DNA of 64,000 nt from Phyllosticta citribraziliensis (GCF_038025025.1 NW_027117339.1:186001-250000), one strand, 5' to 3'; counted from the stretch's first letter, positions 38,081-46,560 are shown. Translations and numbers: made by a program. Notes: generated from the letters alone by a model not told the origin.

Positions 38081-38872
38081 ATGCCACAAACATTTGCGAC
38101 AAAGTCTCTCACCCCTTCCTCGAGCAACCGGGCCACAGCCGGCCACCATGTCAACGCCACTACCACGTCGTCGTCCCAGGCCCCAGCGGCAACCCCACAA
38201 ATCCACATAGCCTCCTCCTCGCCAACCCCCTCGCCTTCGCCCGCAACAGCGTCCCAGGCCTCCTCGCGTGCGCCCTCTCCTCGTGTCGCCGGCCCTAGCA
38301 CCTCGCAGCAGCACACCCGCCGGCCCTCGACGTCGCCCTCGCCTTCGCCTTCGTCCACGTCGCGGCACCACCGTGACTTGCCCCCCGATGATGCCGAGCG
38401 CCTCCGCGCCGCCAACGCTGGCTTCGCGCGCGCCATGGCCGGCACCTCGGCCGTGCGCGCCCGCGCAAAGAGCGACACAGGGCCCACGAGCGGCGGCGGG
38501 AGCCCCAAAGCCTCCATATGGGAGCGGCCGGGGAGCTCGCGGCGCAGCGGCGAGGTCGACGACGAGCTGGAGCGGCGGTGGGGCGCGTGGGAGAGGGGCG
38601 AGCTTGCATCCGGGTCAGGGTCGGCGTCGGACCGCGTGGCCAAGCCCAAGAGCACCAAGGCCGAGTCGGGCGGCACCAGGAGGGGCGGCGGCGGGACTGT
38701 CATTCTTCGGGATCAGGAGGGTGATGGTGCTGCTGGGCGCCCGCCGCCCCAGCCGGCGCCCGGCTTGCTCAAACGGCTTCGCAGCAAGATTGTCAAGGAT
38801 AAGGATCGCGTCAAGGAGATGGCGGAGAGGGCAAACGACCCGAGTCCGGATCACAAGTACGGGCCGTACTGA
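38081..38872 (+). CDS. Hypothetical low-complexity S/P/G/R-rich protein
   Basis: 263-aa GC-rich ATG-to-TGA ORF; no recognised domain. Confidence 0.55.
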   Translation: MPQTFATKSLTPSSSNRATAGHHVNATTTSSSQAPAATPQIHIASSSPTPSPSPATASQASSRAPSPRVAGPSTSQQHTRRPSTSPSPSPSSTSRHHRDLPPDDAERLRAANAGFARAMAGTSAVRARAKSDTGPTSGGGSPKASIWERPGSSRRSGEVDDELERRWGAWERGELASGSGSASDRVAKPKSTKAESGGTRRGGGGTVILRDQEGDGAAGRPPPQPAPGLLKRLRSKIVKDKDRVKEMAERANDPSPDHKYGPY

Positions 38873-41414
38873 TGACGAGAGGCGGCGAGTGGCAGAGAAT
38901 AGAAGGGCGCATGAGACACATCACGCGAAAAGAGAAGAGAGGGGATATGAGAGACGAAACGCAACGACGTACAGAGAAACGCGGAACACGATGCTCACGA
39001 CGCCATGTCCAAAACGGGGAAATGCAAAAGGGAACAGGAAAGGGGAGTTCAGTCACATCTGGTCTTTTCACGCACACTCTGCACGCAATCTTATCCAGCT
39101 ATCAAATATCAACCATCCATTCTTTTCTTTATCCAACTACCAAGACTCGATGATCTTCCCGCCATGCCAGGTGCCACGTATCGCGCATACCCTGACAGCC
39201 AGCCAGGCAGGCACGTTCTCGGCTTCTTCACGCGAGGAACGTGCTATTTGAAGCTGGTTTCGCTTGTATTTTCCGCGTCCGCGTCTGCGTCCTCGTACAT
39301 GCACGTAAGACGACCTGCCTGCCTAGGTACTTAGCTGTGTCTCCACCACCGCCGTTTACAGCCGGACGCTACCACCAAAAACACTCCGTCGCCGCGGCCG
39401 CCTCGGCCCCCACATTATCTACGCACGTTTCTCTACCAACATAAAGTAAACGGCGGAAGTTGAGACTGCGGAGAACTAAACGACGAATGAGCGGCCTGTC
39501 TGTGTCCTCCACGTGGTCGAGGCTGTTTTGGGTATGGGCAAGGTATTTGAGACGCACGCATATCCTACTCTGCACTTCCCATTTCCCCTGTCCAACTACC
39601 CTGTCTGTCTAGACGACTGACGGCAGCCCAGTCTTCGGAACACTGGGTGGCCAGACAAGTCGGGTTCACATACACTTGTTTTCCTTCGCGTCGTTCGCGC
39701 ACCCACCTCTCTCTCTTCGCCCCCTCTGCACTGGTATGTGTTGGTGATGCGGGAAGATGGTGATGATGAGCGCTACTCTGGCGCGTTGAACAGTATCTCC
39801 ATTGTCCAACCACGTCGCCCGTTGTTCCCCTCCACATAACGTTCCGCATTCGCCTTCTTGGGCGCGTCTGCCGGCGCTGCGCTCCACCAAACGCGAACGC
39901 CAAAGTGCGGAAGATCCAGCGGACTCGCTCCGCAGCAGTCGGAATTGATCAAAAGTATCTTCCTCTTTGCGGGCCATAGTCGACGTCCCAGCTGCGACTG
40001 CAGCCGCAGAATTGAGTCAAGAGCATGGTATTTATACACAAGGAAGGGAAGAACAACCAGCCCGCTGCTCGTGCCATCGACCGCCTATCACACGGAGGTC
40101 TGGCATGTGGAGCGCTGGAGCTGGCGTCGCATGTGAGTGGCGGCTGGCTTTCAGTATTCAAGTCGCTGCTGTGGCGCTTGGATTCTGTTTAAGTCGCTGC
40201 GGAACTCCTAGATTCTGTTGTCAGACACGGTCTTCCTGCCTTCGGTAGCAGAGAAACGCTCAGTCCGTACTCCTTCTCGCCTCGAACACCCCGTGTACTG
40301 GGTTTTGTTTCTGTTGCGCTTGGTCTCTTAGTTTATTCAGTTTCTCGGGTCCTGCGCGATGAGATGGTGATGGACGGCGCAGAGGTGAGATGATGAGTGG
40401 CACTATTATCACTCAACGGCGTCTCCTACAATAGACAGGCCGTCAACCCCACAGACAGACTTCTCCCAGTCCACGTTGAATCCGTACGCCCGCGCGCAAA
40501 AAAAGTACATGAGAATCGCAATTTTTTATCCAGCCGCGCTTACTGCGGACAGGACTGTGCTGTTGAAATTGATTAGAAGTGGGAAGGATGCAGTTTTTAT
40601 ACAAAACTGCAGAGCGTACGCCCCTTTTCACGGGATGCTTGAGTTGTGATGAGTCGCGACCGTTTGATCCGCGAGGAAGCTGCGGCATGTGAGCGGCGGC
40701 GGGCTTTGAGTATTCAACCCTCTGCTGAAGCTCCTAGACTCCTTCATCTCACACAACCTTCCTACCTTCTTTCTCGGATCGTGGATAACGCGGCGACTCT
40801 GCTCGCTCTTTTTCGAGAGCCTTCGACGACTGGTGTTTGTTTCTGCTGCGCTTGGCCTGTCATGACTGGCGTAGTTTCCCAAGGCCTGCGCGATGGAGTG
40901 ATGCTGATGGTCAGCACGAAGGCAAAGGGGACGCGCGATGGCAGAATCGTAAAATGAAGGTCTGGCTGCTAGTCTCGTCTTACTTGCGGTAGTGGATTTT
41001 CTCGTGCGCTGTTCTGTGCTGCGCTGCTCTGCTCTTGTCTTGCTTGCTGTGTTGGTAGGTAGGTAGGTTGGATCAGAGGACGCTAGGTGTGACGGGACTG
41101 CGGGCCACATGGTCGATCCGTAGACTCGATCGACGCGCACAGAGTCAATGAATGGAAAGGAAAGAGAATGATCGCATTGGCTTGACTGATGAGCTGTCCA
41201 AGACGAACTGCCGCAACCTCCCATAATCCTCCGAACCATCAAACCCGGAGCCCAGGATCCAACCAACTCTCCCAATCAGAACGGAAAACTGAGAACCTCC
41301 ACCCCTGCTCGAAATGCTCCCCCCAAATTGAAGAAACCGCAGCACAAAGAGGTTTGGCGGGCCAGCCAGGGCAATGTGGTGCAAAGGGAAACGAATGAAA
41401 GAGAGACAAACTTA

Positions 41415-43310
41415 CCTGATCATTTTGTCCGGGCCAGTTTGTTGTTGTTTGAATTGCAAGGTCGTTTTTGAAGCGGCCACCTTTGACGCACAAGCAGAGT
41501 GTGCAAGAGCATCTGTCGGAGGCAGCCAGAGTTGATGTCGGAAGCTGTCCTGCCACTGCGGCAGTGAGGGCTGCTGCTTGCTGGACAAGTTCGACGTCGA
41601 TTTGGAGAGATTTGAGAGGATGAAGGGAAGTAAGTGCGCATTTTTTGCAACGACGGCGATAGACGCCGATGCCCAGAGCGCTGAACTGACCCCCCGAAAT
41701 ACTCCAGCAGTGGAAGCTGAAGACGAGGGTAACTTGCTCCGTAGGCCGCAGAGCGGATCCTACTTTTAGCCATGCTATCGCGGGAACTCATATGGCCATT
41801 TTTTTAGTTGCGTAAAGGAAGACGCGAGCGCGTTTTCCCTCTGTGGCTTTCGCACCGGAGACAGGATGTGCGCTGAACACCTCCACAGTAGTCGGGGAAA
41901 GAAACTCGCCTGCCAGGCACTGTTGTACTTCCTGCGTTTGCGATTGCAGGCACTTCGCAGACCTTTTGACGGGTCCGCAACTCGTGGAAAAAGCAGCATT
42001 CCGGAAGAAGGTGATTTCCACATCGTGACATCGGAGGTCCCGAGTCGGCTTGAAGGGAGCCCAAGTGTTGATACCGCCGATGCTCGCATCAGAGTTTGCC
42101 GTGCAGAATGGTCTTGACTCCGGTCAGTTGTATGATCTGAAACAAGGGTGGAAAAAGCACTTGCCTGACCACTTTGTCTGAGTAGATGGATCAAAGCTTG
42201 TTGTTGACACAGGTGTCGCCTGTTTTTGCAGACCCAATCTTGCTGATGCTTCATCGGGTTGTGTTTTGTCGAACATGGGCAAGAGGGTAAGGTTGAGAGG
42301 TAGATGAGTGCGCATTTTGGACCGGCGGGACCACCTGACCCCGGCGGAGTGTGAGCGCTGAACACATTGTTTTTGCGATGTTTGCTGATTTGGAGGCTGG
42401 ACGAAAGTTAGCACAACATGGAGGGCGTTGGAGTTTGACGGTGACCGCTTACCATTTGCAGACACAAGTTTTGCAGTTGTTCCGAATTGCGTGTTGTTAA
42501 GGAAGGCAGAGAAGCCGGAGTTGAATGGTTGATGAGTGCGCATTTTGTACCAGTACCAATAGGCACAGGCTGCTGTGAGCGCTGAACACATGTTGTTTGT
42601 GATGGTTGCTGATGCAGAAGCTGACAGCGAGTTAGCACAACTTAAATGGTGTTAAAGTTTGCGAGCGGCACTTACAATTTGTAGACACAAATTTTGCTGT
42701 CGTTTCGAATTGCGTAGTGTTGAGGAAGGCAGAGAAGCCGGAGTTGAATGGTTGATGAGTGCGCATTTTGTACCGGGATCACCTGGCCCCGGGGGGATTG
42801 TGAGCGCTGAACACATTGTTCTTGCGATTGATTTTTGTGCAGAGGCTGACGAGAGTTAGCACAGCTTGACCAGAGAGGAGGGTCGAGGGTACGTACATTT
42901 TCCAATGTTTTGCAAGCTCTGGAGCGAGAGCCAGGCCTGACACCGGGAGACATGATCATTGTTGACTACACGGGCGCGTTAGCATGCCCGAAGAGCAGAG
43001 AGCGTAAACGACGACGAGTGAAGCGCTGGCCCGCCATGACCTGAAGAAAGGAAGCCTGCAGTCTACTGTCAGCAAAGCGAGTGCTCAAGGTGAGGAGGAA
43101 GGTTGAACGCCGGTTCGGCGACAGAGGCTCCAAAAGCAGGGCGCGGCGGGCGCGGGTCTCAAGGGAAGTACGTCGTCCGAGAGCCAAAGTGTTGCCTGAA
43201 GAGCTGGAGAGAATCCAGTGGGTTGAACGAGACAGGGCGATGGCGAAGCTGTCGAGAGAGAGGGCAGAGCTCAAGTGCGCGTTGCTGTCGGGTCCCGCTC
43301 GCCGCATGGC
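41415..43310 (-). ncRNA. Putative multi-exon transcript, probably non-coding, carrying five conserved hairpin cassettes
   Basis: Chain of canonical minus-strand introns. The reading frame is not conserved between repeat copies. Cassettes at 41633, 41827, 42307, 42535 and 42758. Boundaries approximate. Confidence 0.45.
42225..42896. repeat. Three tandem ~225-bp units, each a minus-strand exon plus intron
   Basis: Units at about 42225-42452, 42453-42675 and 42676-42896. Minus-strand introns 42397-42452, 42621-42675 and 42846-42896, each GTA(A/C)G..GCTAAC..CAG. Confidence 0.9.
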
Positions 43311-43605
43311 TCGCTGGGGAGGAGGGCGAGGGAGGATGATGAAGAGGAGAGGAGCGCGGGCGGAGGGTGGAGGGTTTTTGTACTGTCGCGTGGGCGGTGC
43401 GCAGGCGGAGCCAGCAGGCAGGTGGAGGGAGGAAGGAGCGCCGCCCACCAGGACAAGCAACTCGAGGCAACAGGATCACGGCGAGTCGGGCTTCCTTGGA
43501 GACAAACACGCTTAGACATTACGATAGCATGCTACGTACCGTATCTACTGAATTCCCTTGGAAAATACCTTCAACACGCGCCGCCGCAAATGGAAGATGC
43601 AAACC

Positions 43606-45793
43606 TCACGCCGTGCTGAGGACAACCACACTCCACGCAGGCAGCTCCAGCGTAAAGACACCATCGGCCGCCTCGACGCTGCCCGACACCGGCACGACCG
43701 TGTCCGGCGCCTCCAGCGTGTTCGCGTCCGTCTCACCCCCAGTCAGCGTCGTCGTCGCGGCCGAGCCCGTCGCGCCCTCAATGCTCACACTGACGCTCTG
43801 CACGTCGGCGCCGTAGTTTGCCAGCTTGACGTAGTACGCACCCGACGACGAGTCGGCCGTCGCGCTCCAGTAGACGGGGCCAAACGCCGTGTCGCTGGTG
43901 ACCTCGCGCGTCGTGTCGCCGTGGTTGGCGGCGAAGATCTGCTCGACGTAGTAGCTGGTGCTCTTGACCACGCCAGTCGGCGACGCGTCGTAGCTGACAA
44001 AGTCGGGCACCCACTGCGTGCCGTTGACGTGCTGCAGCGTCGGCGCGTACGCCGCCAGGCGTATCACGTCCGAGTTGCGCTCGACGCCAATCAGGAAGAC
44101 GGCCTCGGACACGGCGCCCGCCAAGTACGGCCACTGCTGCTCGTCGCTGTCGCGGTTGGCGTACTCGCCGACGAAAATGGGAATCGACCGGTTCCAATTG
44201 TCCCACAGGTTGAACTGCCCCACCAGGTCGTCGCGGGCGGAGTACGTGTGATAGTCTTGCCACGCGCCCTCGGGGAACGGCGACGGCAAGCAGTCGGCGT
44301 TGTTGGTGGATGCGATGATGATGATGTCCGGGTACGCGGCTTTGATGGCGTCGTGGAAACGCTGGAAGCGTTCTGGGTATGAGTCGCAGCCTCCGCTCAG
44401 GTTGTCCTCGTTGCCAATCTCGACGTATGGGATTGGAAAGGGTTCAGAGTATCCAAGAGCCACGCGCTGCGCCCCATACGTCGTTGAGCTGTCACCGAGG
44501 AGGAACTGCCGGCTGTTAGGGATGGGCCCACAGAGGATTTACAAATGTCTCACCTCGAGCTCATTGAGGACGTCATCAATGTACGGCTGCAGAGCGTCGC
44601 CGGTAAGCGGCGTGTTTCCACCCGAATTCAGAGCAAGGCCAGCCCAGACTCCCAGGATGTTGAAGAGGTTCATGTCTTCTGCCCACTCGAGGTATTCAAT
44701 AAGACCTACGCAAAGTTAATCATCTACTCGAAGGGCTTGTCCGAAATATCAACATACCAAGCCAGTCAGTGTTTGGGTAGGTCCAATCGCCTGCATTTAT
44801 CAGTGTCTTGTGCTAATTGCAGGGAGCAGACAGGAAATGTACCCTGTCGTCCAGGCCTCTCCTCAACGGGTCCAATCGTCTCGTTCCACTTCCACCGGTT
44901 GTCCTCGCTCTCGCCCTCCCTACAAAAAGTCAGTAAACCATAGTGATAAAGAGGAGAAGTACTCACAAGTTGTTACCACCCGGAAACCGCAAGAAGCCGC
45001 CTCCCAGCTGATCCAAAACTTCCGCAATGCGCGGGTCCAAGCCATTGGGCCTATTCTTAAACGTCGGGGGGTACAGCGCTACAAGGTCAAACCAGACAGT
45101 CTTGCCTGCAACCGCGCTGGCGTCTTCCCACACAACTTCCCAGACATTGTTGCCATCGGGAGCCGTAGCATTGCTCTCCAGGGCCGTCGTCTGCACGTAG
45201 GTCCAGTCGTCTGCGGAGCCGGTAACGTCGACGCTGGCACTGCCAAATACAGTACCGCTGCTGGCACCGACGAGCCGCAGCGTCAGCGCGCCGCTAAAGT
45301 CGCCCTTGAACCAGAAACTCGTGTTGTAAGTCGCCGCGACCACGGGGATGCCCCAGTAGCCTTCGTTGCTGAAGCCGGCCTCGCCTGTCGCGTCTGAGGG
45401 CACCGTCACGGCCAGTGAGTGCGTGATGGCGCTATTGAGCGGCGTCGAGGAGTCGACGGCCAGGCTAGCGCTGCCAATGGCTGCGTACGCCGTCAGGTTC
45501 TGGTCGTCGCCTTGGAAGCCGTTGTTGCGGAGCAGTTGGCCGTGGATACCGCCGTCGCCCGAGTGGTTAATATCCTGTTGGTGCCAGGTGAGCGGGATTT
45601 CTCGCGGGCAGAGGCTCTTTGTCAGATTGTCAAGGAAAGGTCAAGTGCGCACTTCAAACATGATTCCGATTGGCGTCGAACTGGAACTGTTTCCGCCGGA
45701 TGTGGCTACGGTCAGGTTGATGGAGGCGGCATGGCCGATCAACGAAAGAAACGGCACGAGGGCCGCCAGCCCAGATGAACGAGGGACCTTCAT
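43606..45793 (-). CDS. GH51 alpha-L-arabinofuranosidase, secreted
   Basis: Signal peptide, [71 protein letters not shown]. Confidence 0.95.
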
Positions 45794-45970
45794 TAGGAGC
45801 GCTGGGAGGCAATTGTCCAGCAGAGAAAGCTGGGACAACAAAGGGCAGTGATCGAACAACCTCTTGTGCGAGCATAGTGACTTGACGAGTATAAGTACTC
45901 TGGCAGACTAGAGCGAGGTCAACACAAGTGCTTACAAGTTTAAAGTGGGACGGACAGCAAGGAGAATACG

Positions 45971-45979
45971 ATTGGTGGA
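45971..45979 (-). promoter_or_regulatory. GARE (GaaR-type) motif TCCACCAAT upstream of GH51
   Basis: Exact match to the TCCNCCAAT consensus about 180 bp upstream of the ATG; SYGGRG CreA-like sites nearby (46036, 46061). Confidence 0.6.
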
Positions 45980-46560
45980 ATTGGAGCTGTCGAAATGGTA
46001 GCGTGCATTCACGGAAAGGGAGTGTTGTGTGGTTTGCGGGGCAGGTGGTACAATTGAGCTGTGGGGACAATTGGAGTAGACAAAAGTGGAAAGTAGACAG
46101 TCAAAAAGCTTGGTATGCGGACAGACAAGAAAAATTAGACATTGACATGTTTAGGCAGATTTTTGAGCACCAGGAACCGCCCAGTCAGGAGAGCAGAAAG
46201 CAGTATTGGACAGGGTTGGCGTTACCCGAGGTGTTGTCTTGCAGGTCCATCTTGCAGCTGCGCAGGCCAGGTCGCCTGACTGGCCGAGATTTTGTTTCGG
46301 CAGCGAATGAACCGACGCGACCTTGGTCGGAGAGCTTCTTCAACGGGACACAAGACAGGTGCCGAGAGTCGCTGCCATGGATTCGAGCGTGGAAGCGAGG
46401 GGCCCCGCGGGGTAGAGGGTGCGGAGGAAGAAAAGCAGCGCAGGCCAAGATCGAGACTGTCCCCGATGGGATGCCGCAAGAGTAGATCTACCCGCCCGCC
46501 CGCCGCCTTGAGTGGAATAAGCTCCGCCGTCGTATTTCCATGTCGTCTTGTCCAGGTCGG

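Follow-up and report, generated by a model that had tools for sequence, protein, structure and literature searches.

The 64,000-nucleotide stretch of the Phyllosticta citribraziliensis genome analysed here (GCF_038025025.1 NW_027117339.1:186001-250000; hereafter, the window) carries on its minus strand a locus that is transcribed into a spliced multi-exon RNA with a back-splice junction. The exons of this RNA lie between 41416 and 42965, ~530 bases beyond the poly(A) site that ends the transcript of a gene for a GH51 alpha-L-arabinofuranosidase, which occupies the same strand from 43606 to about 45950 and has its closest matches in Phyllosticta citricarpa (92%) and P. capitalensis (87%). In the 4.6 kb downstream of the GH51 gene, there is no convincing protein gene. 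P. citribraziliensis is an endophyte and not a pathogen. A study of endophytic and pathogenic Phyllosticta species (PMC3160796) includes it.

The core of the locus consists of three tandem units of ~225 bp on the minus strand, with the families of direct repeats spaced by 223-225 bases. When the 38800-43600 segment was compared with itself, the part between 42292 and 42643 aligned with that between 42520 and 42867 at 76.6% identity over 354 columns (E 1e-68). Every young unit retains a GTACGT, GTAAGT or GTAAGC donor, a TGTGCTAAC branch and a CAG acceptor, as described in the initial annotation, which had been made from the sequence alone, and these signals have been kept while the interiors of the three young introns diverged. 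Each of the three young exons carries one cassette of ~80 nt, in which two conserved boxes flank a variable hairpin (cassettes E, D and C, in the order of transcription), and two older cassettes, B and A, are situated in the last exon. Units E and D have in common one 52-nt block without any change, and the regions adjoining this block are ~20-40% diverged. A CAG is found by eye 36-39 nt upstream of the GCGC stem of the cassette in A and B, as well as in E, which was counted as the young copy, in agreement with the initial claim that this trinucleotide is placed in the older cassettes as in the young ones.

Contigs of two public sequencing runs from two studies (X1 and X2), whose records do not describe them as RNA, were placed on the 40000-46000 segment. 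Silence should not be concluded from parts that are uncovered or of low depth, such as 43015-43416 in X2, and the mean word depth of the contigs, which we quote below, is a crude measure. In the GH51 gene, the contigs of both runs skipped introns that have CT..AC ends, and in X2 a T-run formed a loose end at 43496; thus, the runs contain spliced, polyadenylated RNA. At the locus itself, all four internal introns (42846-42896, 42621-42675, 42397-42452 and 42113-42164) were skipped in X1 as well as in X2. Their ends on the window strand read CT..AC in the first three cases and CT..GC in the case of 42113-42164, which corresponds to GC-AG on the minus strand. The initial annotation had made its proposal dependent on splicing at the first three of these introns, and all three were spliced in both runs; its lengths for two of the exons, 170 and 168 nt, also proved correct. 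The public annotation of a protein at this locus (P0121, see below) uses exactly the same introns.

In the direction of transcription, the series of exons starts with exon 1 (42897-42965, 69 nt), which is delimited by the joints 42965->41416 and 42845->42897, contains the first two AUGs, and resembles in its 3' part, by eye, the 3' end of the module. It is preceded by a leader or a remnant of an upstream intron (42966-43040), with a weak GTCATG at 43040, a TGCTAAC branch at 42984-42978, and an AG acceptor at 42967-42966. The first intron (42846-42896, 51 nt; GTACGT...TGTGCTAAC...CAG) leads to exon 2 (42676-42845, 170 nt), defined by its joints, with cassette E at 42743-42825 (covariance-model score 89.3 bits). 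The second (42621-42675, 55 nt; GTAAGT...TGTGCTAAC...CAG) leads to exon 3 (42453-42620, 168 nt), likewise defined by its joints, with cassette D at 42520-42600 (87.8 bits), and the third (42397-42452, 56 nt; GTAAGC...TGTGCTAAC...CAG) to exon 4 (42165-42396, 232 nt), with joints at both ends and cassette C at 42292-42376 (85.5 bits). Exon 4 extends to a GC donor because the donor homologous to those of the D and E units has been lost, as follows from the alignment of the units. The GC-AG intron (42113-42164, 52 nt; GCAAGT...AACTGAC...AAG) is followed by exon 5 (41416-42112, 697 nt), which was covered by an unbroken X2 contig and contains the old cassettes B (41812-41892) and A (41620-41699). 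Beyond exon 5, the donor GTAAGT at 41415-41410 opens a tail (41179-41415) that was present in read-through contigs in unspliced form; the only joint of this donor was the back-splice. The five exons add up to 1336 nt.

The back-splice was represented in X1 and X2 by a joint from 42965 to 41416, which goes back 1550 bases. On the minus strand this joint is canonical, with GT at 41415-41414 and AG at 42967-42966, and it connects an exon end ...TCAG at 41416 (followed by GTAAGT) with an exon start at 42965 (preceded by ...GTGTAG). It has the make-up of a junction of an exonic circular RNA (circRNA), which links a 5' splice site at GT to a 3' splice site at AG located upstream of it, and it matches the guess in the initial annotation that exons may be circularised. 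The two sides of the joint have only the 8-nt TGATCATT in common, and both copies are retained in the joint, so that neither a misjoin in a 31-mer graph nor a homology-driven template switch explains it. The depth of the back-splice contig was similar to that of the contigs with forward joints (957.5 vs. 823.6-1252.6 in X1, and 98.9 vs. 56.4-100 in X2), and the depth upstream, at 43015-43416, was 125-176 in X1 and 0 in X2. As far as this crude measure goes, it hints that back-splicing is not rare here.

Neither a forward splice from the 41415 donor nor one into the 42966 acceptor was found among the contig joints of X1 and X2. GTACTT at 43171 and GTCATG at 43040 are present as sequence, but no contig joint of either run falls there. 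Thus, of the further intron-like signals that had been pointed out initially, the GC donor at 42165 and the donor at 41415, the latter in the back-splice, proved to be used, and those near 43170 and 43020 had no joint in the RNA. Downstream of the 41415 donor, we could not find by eye a CTAAC or CTGAC branch with an acceptor. What looked by eye like a relic of a module intron after 41415 (TTGTGCT...TTTC...CAA) was dropped, as the module profile had no match there. In X1, a 2910-nt contig whose depth is similar to the depth of the circle spans 40000-41429 and continues below 40000, to ~38520 if colinearity with the window is assumed. The corresponding region in X2 has a depth 4-12 times lower than that of the circle, with the exception of 41179-41445. 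This pattern points either to separate transcripts or to a polyadenylated tail remaining after back-splicing.

The sequence of the cassette on the transcribed strand is (A)UGUGUUCAGCGCUCACA, then the variable hairpin, and then ACAAAAUGCGCACUCAUC. The boxes GTGCGCATTTT and GCGCTGAACAC each occur in four exact copies, all of them in the locus; allowing up to one mismatch, GTGCGCATTTT occurs five times, as compared with a mean of 1.27 in shuffles. A covariance model of the cassette had five matches in the 64 kb, none of them outside the locus or on the plus strand, with the next best match at 9.4 bits. With C, D and E as its only training copies, the model ranked A (21.5 bits, E 0.0037) and B (13.2 bits) right after them. 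With a profile of the whole module, A (E 0.0014) and B (E 0.029) were recovered in their cassette part only. Since only the cassette of these old copies is still recognisable, it is the slowest-changing part of the module. Its predicted architecture combines a GCGC:GCGC stem with an internal loop and a hairpin of 7-9 bp; it was seen again in A, C, D and E when the minus strand was folded, and also inside the folds of the whole exons with E and D. The consensus fold comprises 14 pairs, with 88.6% of the cells paired vs. 21-54% when the partners were slid, and the pair 39-50 is found as GC, UA and CG. Eight of the paired cells are G-U on the minus strand, where by our own count the structure pairs 62 of 70 cells vs. 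56 of 70 on the plus strand.

Searches for relatives of the cassette were negative. The scan of the whole window with Rfam at gathering thresholds gave no match, permissive Rfam scans of 40800-44000 and 38800-41450 gave only matches at the level of chance (E of at least 1.4), and the best sub-threshold match on a cassette was that to mir-933 (17.6 bits vs. a gathering score of 100). A strict cassette pattern had no match in metagenomes. A loose pattern matched 72 metagenome loci, once each, and 52 of the 72 had E <= 1 with the cassette model; we took them as chance matches because none exceeded 21.8 bits, the score that the 20 preset bases provide alone. Several other readings were discarded. 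The variable parts of the hairpin do not look like guides, as no complement or copy of them longer than 11 nt is present elsewhere in the window. Reading the boxes as a hammerhead, a k-turn or an H/ACA element was dropped by eye, since the core positions misfit across the copies, and a mini-cassette look-alike on the plus strand (39765-39795), also seen by eye, was not matched by the cassette model. Judged by its sequence, the cassette is a candidate for a new RNA motif.

The spliced RNA contains an open frame of 326 codons that, as the initial annotation had observed, stays open across exons and reads homologous DNA in different frames between the units. Starting at its first AUG, it is identical in every letter to P0121, a 292-aa "uncharacterized protein" of P. 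citribraziliensis annotated as J3D65DRAFT_195586. This AUG, at nt 99, is the third one of the spliced RNA, and the frame ends at a stop in exon 5, the last exon; the two AUGs of exon 1 first open a frame of 118 codons. P0121 matched only itself among 5.8 billion clustered proteins (160-511 aa), and it was again its own sole match in the HMMER search of 1.84 billion representatives; both libraries contain other Phyllosticta proteomes. No Pfam family was found in P0121. Between the duplicated exons, pN/pS was 0.61-1.28 in all nine frame-by-pair tests. Clearly, protein-level conservation of any kind is lacking: neither a homologue or domain nor codon constraint in one consistent frame, by which a protein gene would be recognised, was found. 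From the lack of homologues and of Pfam families, the start at the third AUG, the mixed frames and the pN/pS values, we conclude that the locus, to judge by its sequence, evolves as non-coding. The public protein is probably an artefact, in that a long open frame of a non-coding RNA was annotated as coding. Of the two possibilities put forward initially, that of a de novo or decaying gene is therefore weak, with a self-match only, no Pfam family, a third-AUG start and pN/pS of ~1, and that of a long non-coding RNA (lncRNA) is supported. The accompanying idea of one cassette per exon does not extend to exon 5, which holds two because their former introns are no longer spliced.

Taken together, these results make it fairly probable, in our view, that the locus encodes a lineage-restricted spliced lncRNA, which grew by the duplication of an exon with its intron and is circularised via its first acceptor and its last donor, both of which lack a partner. 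A ~225-bp module, comprising one cassette exon and one short intron, would have been duplicated serially in tandem to build the locus. The three youngest modules still splice, and in the oldest two, A and B, the intron signals would have decayed and the exons fused into one. The fusion is indicated by the unbroken contig over 41416-42112 and by the CAGs still present at the corresponding position. In unit C, the donor equivalent to that of the other units appears to have been lost and replaced by the GC donor further on. The first acceptor, at 42966, would be left with only the weak GTCATG as a candidate donor upstream, and the last donor, at 41415, without a usable branch and acceptor downstream, so that these two partnerless sites would be spliced together, closing exons 1-5 into a circle of 1336 nt. 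We infer both that the back-spliced product is a covalent circle and that the arrangement of unpartnered sites drives its formation. On this model, transcription is predicted to begin close to 42966-43050 and to end near 41180, and a branched by-product composed of leader and tail should result from back-splicing. The cassette, in turn, would act as an RNA element in which the boxes GUUCAGCGC and AAAAUGCGCAC close the GCGC:GCGC stem under the variable hairpin. In what is the weakest step of the scheme, the circle or the linear RNA would display five copies of a putative binding site to some partner. A further-reaching version, in which the circle is the main product, a stable multivalent RNA whose five stem-loops titrate or scaffold an RNA-binding factor, with units added by module duplication and circularisation as the default outcome of the unpartnered sites, is a doubtful proposition at present. 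Bolder still, the depletion of stops in all frames, together with a circle length of 1 modulo 3, might point to ribosomes circling through successive frames.

Several observations weigh against this lncRNA reading. A joint in a contig fits a circle, exon repetition by trans-splicing and a tandem duplication collapsed in the assembly alike. The 41415 donor is also read through, by contigs covering 41179-41445 in X2 (depth 181.5) and 40000-41429 in X1 (depth 1337.9), and both of them are deeper than the back-splice contig of the same run. The flanks have no special complementarity, as 6 of 60 shuffles paired at least as well, and we therefore rejected flank pairing as a driver of back-splicing. 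As to the cassette, copy B is marginal when it stands outside the model (E 0.69). The minus-strand fold z-scores of E, D, C and B are -0.48, -1.33, -1.27 and -1.00, with only A reaching -3.43, and those of the whole exons with E and D are -0.47 and -0.43. The covariation score was reached by 46 of 500 shuffles and the count of pairs changed on both sides by 258 of 500, in an alignment that consists of only five related sequences. The support for the predicted cassette fold, and hence for the hairpin proposed initially, is thus modest rather than strong. Finally, the sense strand of the spliced RNA contains 12 stop trinucleotides vs. 27.7 +/- 3.6 in dinucleotide shuffles, none of which (0/1000) had as few, as if ribosomes could matter. 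This depletion concerns all three frames over the 1336 nt (exon 5 alone has 7 stops vs. 16.3 +/- 2.8 in shuffles), and the reverse complement carries 59 stops. TA dinucleotides are strongly depleted in the spliced RNA of 41416-42965, which has only 24 of them. The stops of all three frames are clustered at spliced nt 945-989, between cassettes A and B of exon 5. As runs of 230-370 nt that are stop-free in all frames occur elsewhere in the window, the scarcity of stops is an outlier and not a singularity.

The same anatomy could arise without any function, and this is the alternative we take most seriously, even if we find it rather less probable than the reading above. The transcript would then be young and evolve fast, possibly with a contribution of read-through from the GH51 gene, which is strongly expressed, and it would have leftover splice sites, a back-splice that is a by-product, and boxes that only look conserved, owing to recency or gene conversion. 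Consistent with that, no relative of the locus was detectable in the protein libraries or the metagenome scans, the unchanged 52-nt block of E and D beside its diverged surroundings looks like gene conversion, and the fold z-scores are not significant in four of the five copies. On the other hand, the cassette alone has remained recognisable in the old copies A and B, the signals of the three young introns have outlasted the divergence of their interiors, the RNA reaches a sizeable word depth in both runs, and drift does not predict a depletion of stops on the sense strand. The RNA might also be purely linear, with the 41416->42965 junction coming from a 1.55-kb tandem duplication collapsed in the assembly or from trans-splicing (exon repetition). 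The locus does have a proven history of tandem duplication, topology is not readable from contigs, and X2 includes poly(A)-tailed reads, as the T-run at the 3' end of the neighbouring gene indicates; poly(A) selection of that library, if used, should have depleted circles. Nevertheless, we regard this as unlikely. The junction falls exactly at GT and AG, and the read-through contigs match the window past the donor with no other letters (X1, 40000-41429) or one (X2, 41179-41445). The self-comparison of 38800-43600 did not reveal a second copy of exon 1, and a back-splice about as deep as the forward joints would, by this crude measure, require many tandem copies and not two. Moreover, the assembly contig that encodes P0121 is 2.78 Mb long, and assemblies so contiguous rarely collapse a 1.5-kb repeat.

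A young de novo protein gene, coding for the 292 aa as annotated, seems to us quite improbable, even though its 326-codon frame is longer than any found in 1000 shuffles (the largest had 246), stop trinucleotides are depleted, its stop lies in the last exon, and the public annotation is that of a protein. The self-match in both libraries without a domain, the different frames used for homologous exon DNA, and pN/pS of ~1 in all frames argue against it, as do the 118-codon frame opened first by two upstream AUGs, the depletion of stops in three frames instead of one, and the all-frame stop-free runs of 230-370 nt elsewhere in the window. Least credible of all, with a very small chance of being right, is the idea that the cassettes are box C/D-like small RNAs of the plus strand (UGAUGA ... 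CUGA), to which the spliced RNA is merely antisense. The plus strand of C, D and E does read (A/U)GAUGA ... CUGA, and a better, separate box C/D candidate is present on the plus strand at 40646-40728. However, none of the five cassettes passed a box C/D scan with the terminal-stem rule, A and B have no C box, the span from the C to the D box is only ~56 nt with no common D' box, and no Rfam family fits. The splice evidence is all on the minus strand, which the G-U pairs favour as well. In other words, the cassettes do not combine a RUGAUGA C box, a CUGA D box and a terminal stem on the transcribed strand, as box C/D snoRNAs do.

The separate box C/D snoRNA candidate (40646-40728, plus strand, 83 nt) reads GTGATGA ... 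CTGA and has a 5-bp terminal stem. It was the sole match of the box C/D scan of both strands of 38800-43600, and it lies on the strand opposite to that of the spliced RNA. No Rfam family fits it, and its fold z-score is 0.21. Beside it, the plus-strand segment 40891-40985 weakly resembles snoR30/Z108 (18.5 bits vs. a gathering score of 60, E 1.4-1.6) through a common GGCAGAAUCG stretch, probably by chance. A second local repeat family is found on the plus strand of the same area, where 40129-40171 is similar to 40685-40727 (86%) and 40297-40373 to 40829-40910 (73%). In each run, one contig fits the window only from 40830, and the letters that precede this point are absent from the window; it may come from a paralogue or variant elsewhere. 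The transcribed GH51 gene spans 43496-45960 on the minus strand, with five introns skipped in X1 and X2 and the poly(A) site at 43496. Its 5'-most intron differs by run (45880->45936 in X1, 45907->45956 in X2), and one contig in both runs departs from the window sequence at 45467, continuing with loose letters that are absent from the window.

A catalogue of fungal circRNAs has reportedly been compiled for Trichophyton rubrum. Back-spliced circRNAs of fungi are known mainly from such catalogues, as isoforms of protein genes, according to a report on Magnaporthe oryzae (PMC5928111). The locus described here resembles exonic circRNAs in that a GT donor is connected to an AG acceptor lying upstream of it and the internal introns are removed. 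In contrast to them, its parent is not a protein gene but a transcript of duplicated modules that matches nothing else, nearly the whole transcript is included in the back-splice, and the contig depth, crude as it is, is about that of the forward joints and not that of a rare isoform. In Schizosaccharomyces pombe, circularisation proceeds via an exon-containing lariat, according to Barrett et al. (2015, PMC4479058). The resemblance extends to a fungal host, short introns and the lack of notable flanking inverted repeats, given the shuffle result mentioned above. As this route is presented there, however, it requires an exon-skipping forward splice, and at our locus no contig joint of X1 or X2 connects a site upstream of 42966 with one downstream of 41415, nor is a downstream branch and acceptor evident.

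Multi-site decoy RNAs, such as CDR1as/ciRS-7 and the fission-yeast meiRNA, also carry several copies of a short conserved element in one RNA. The analogy is one of design only, as the locus has just five copies of the cassette and no known partner. Non-coding snoRNA hosts of the UHG/GAS5 type are similar in being spliced, non-coding and modular, with one small element per module, but their small RNAs are situated in introns, whereas here the introns are 51-56 nt long, the elements are exonic, and no snoRNA family or boxes fit the transcribed strand. Introner-like elements are intron copies that multiply within Dothideomycete genomes, and intron copies have multiplied in a Dothideomycete genome here, too. 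Unlike introners, the intron was copied locally and in tandem, together with its exon, and was not inserted into unrelated genes; within the 64-kb window, the cassette is confined to this locus. In the literature searched, no paper mentions the locus tag J3D65DRAFT_195586, none is relevant to circular RNA of Phyllosticta, and those on circRNA and Dothideomycetes do not describe a fungal circRNA locus. What appears to be new, therefore, is a modular non-coding locus that matches nothing else and whose own duplication history would have created the conditions for circularisation, along with a repeated cassette that seems, from its sequence, to be a previously undescribed element. If confirmed, the locus would provide a clean single-locus model in which nearly the whole of a non-coding transcript is back-spliced, and its origin from duplicated modules, with old introns that decayed and splice sites left over without a partner, would represent a mechanism of circularisation that needs no intron pairing.

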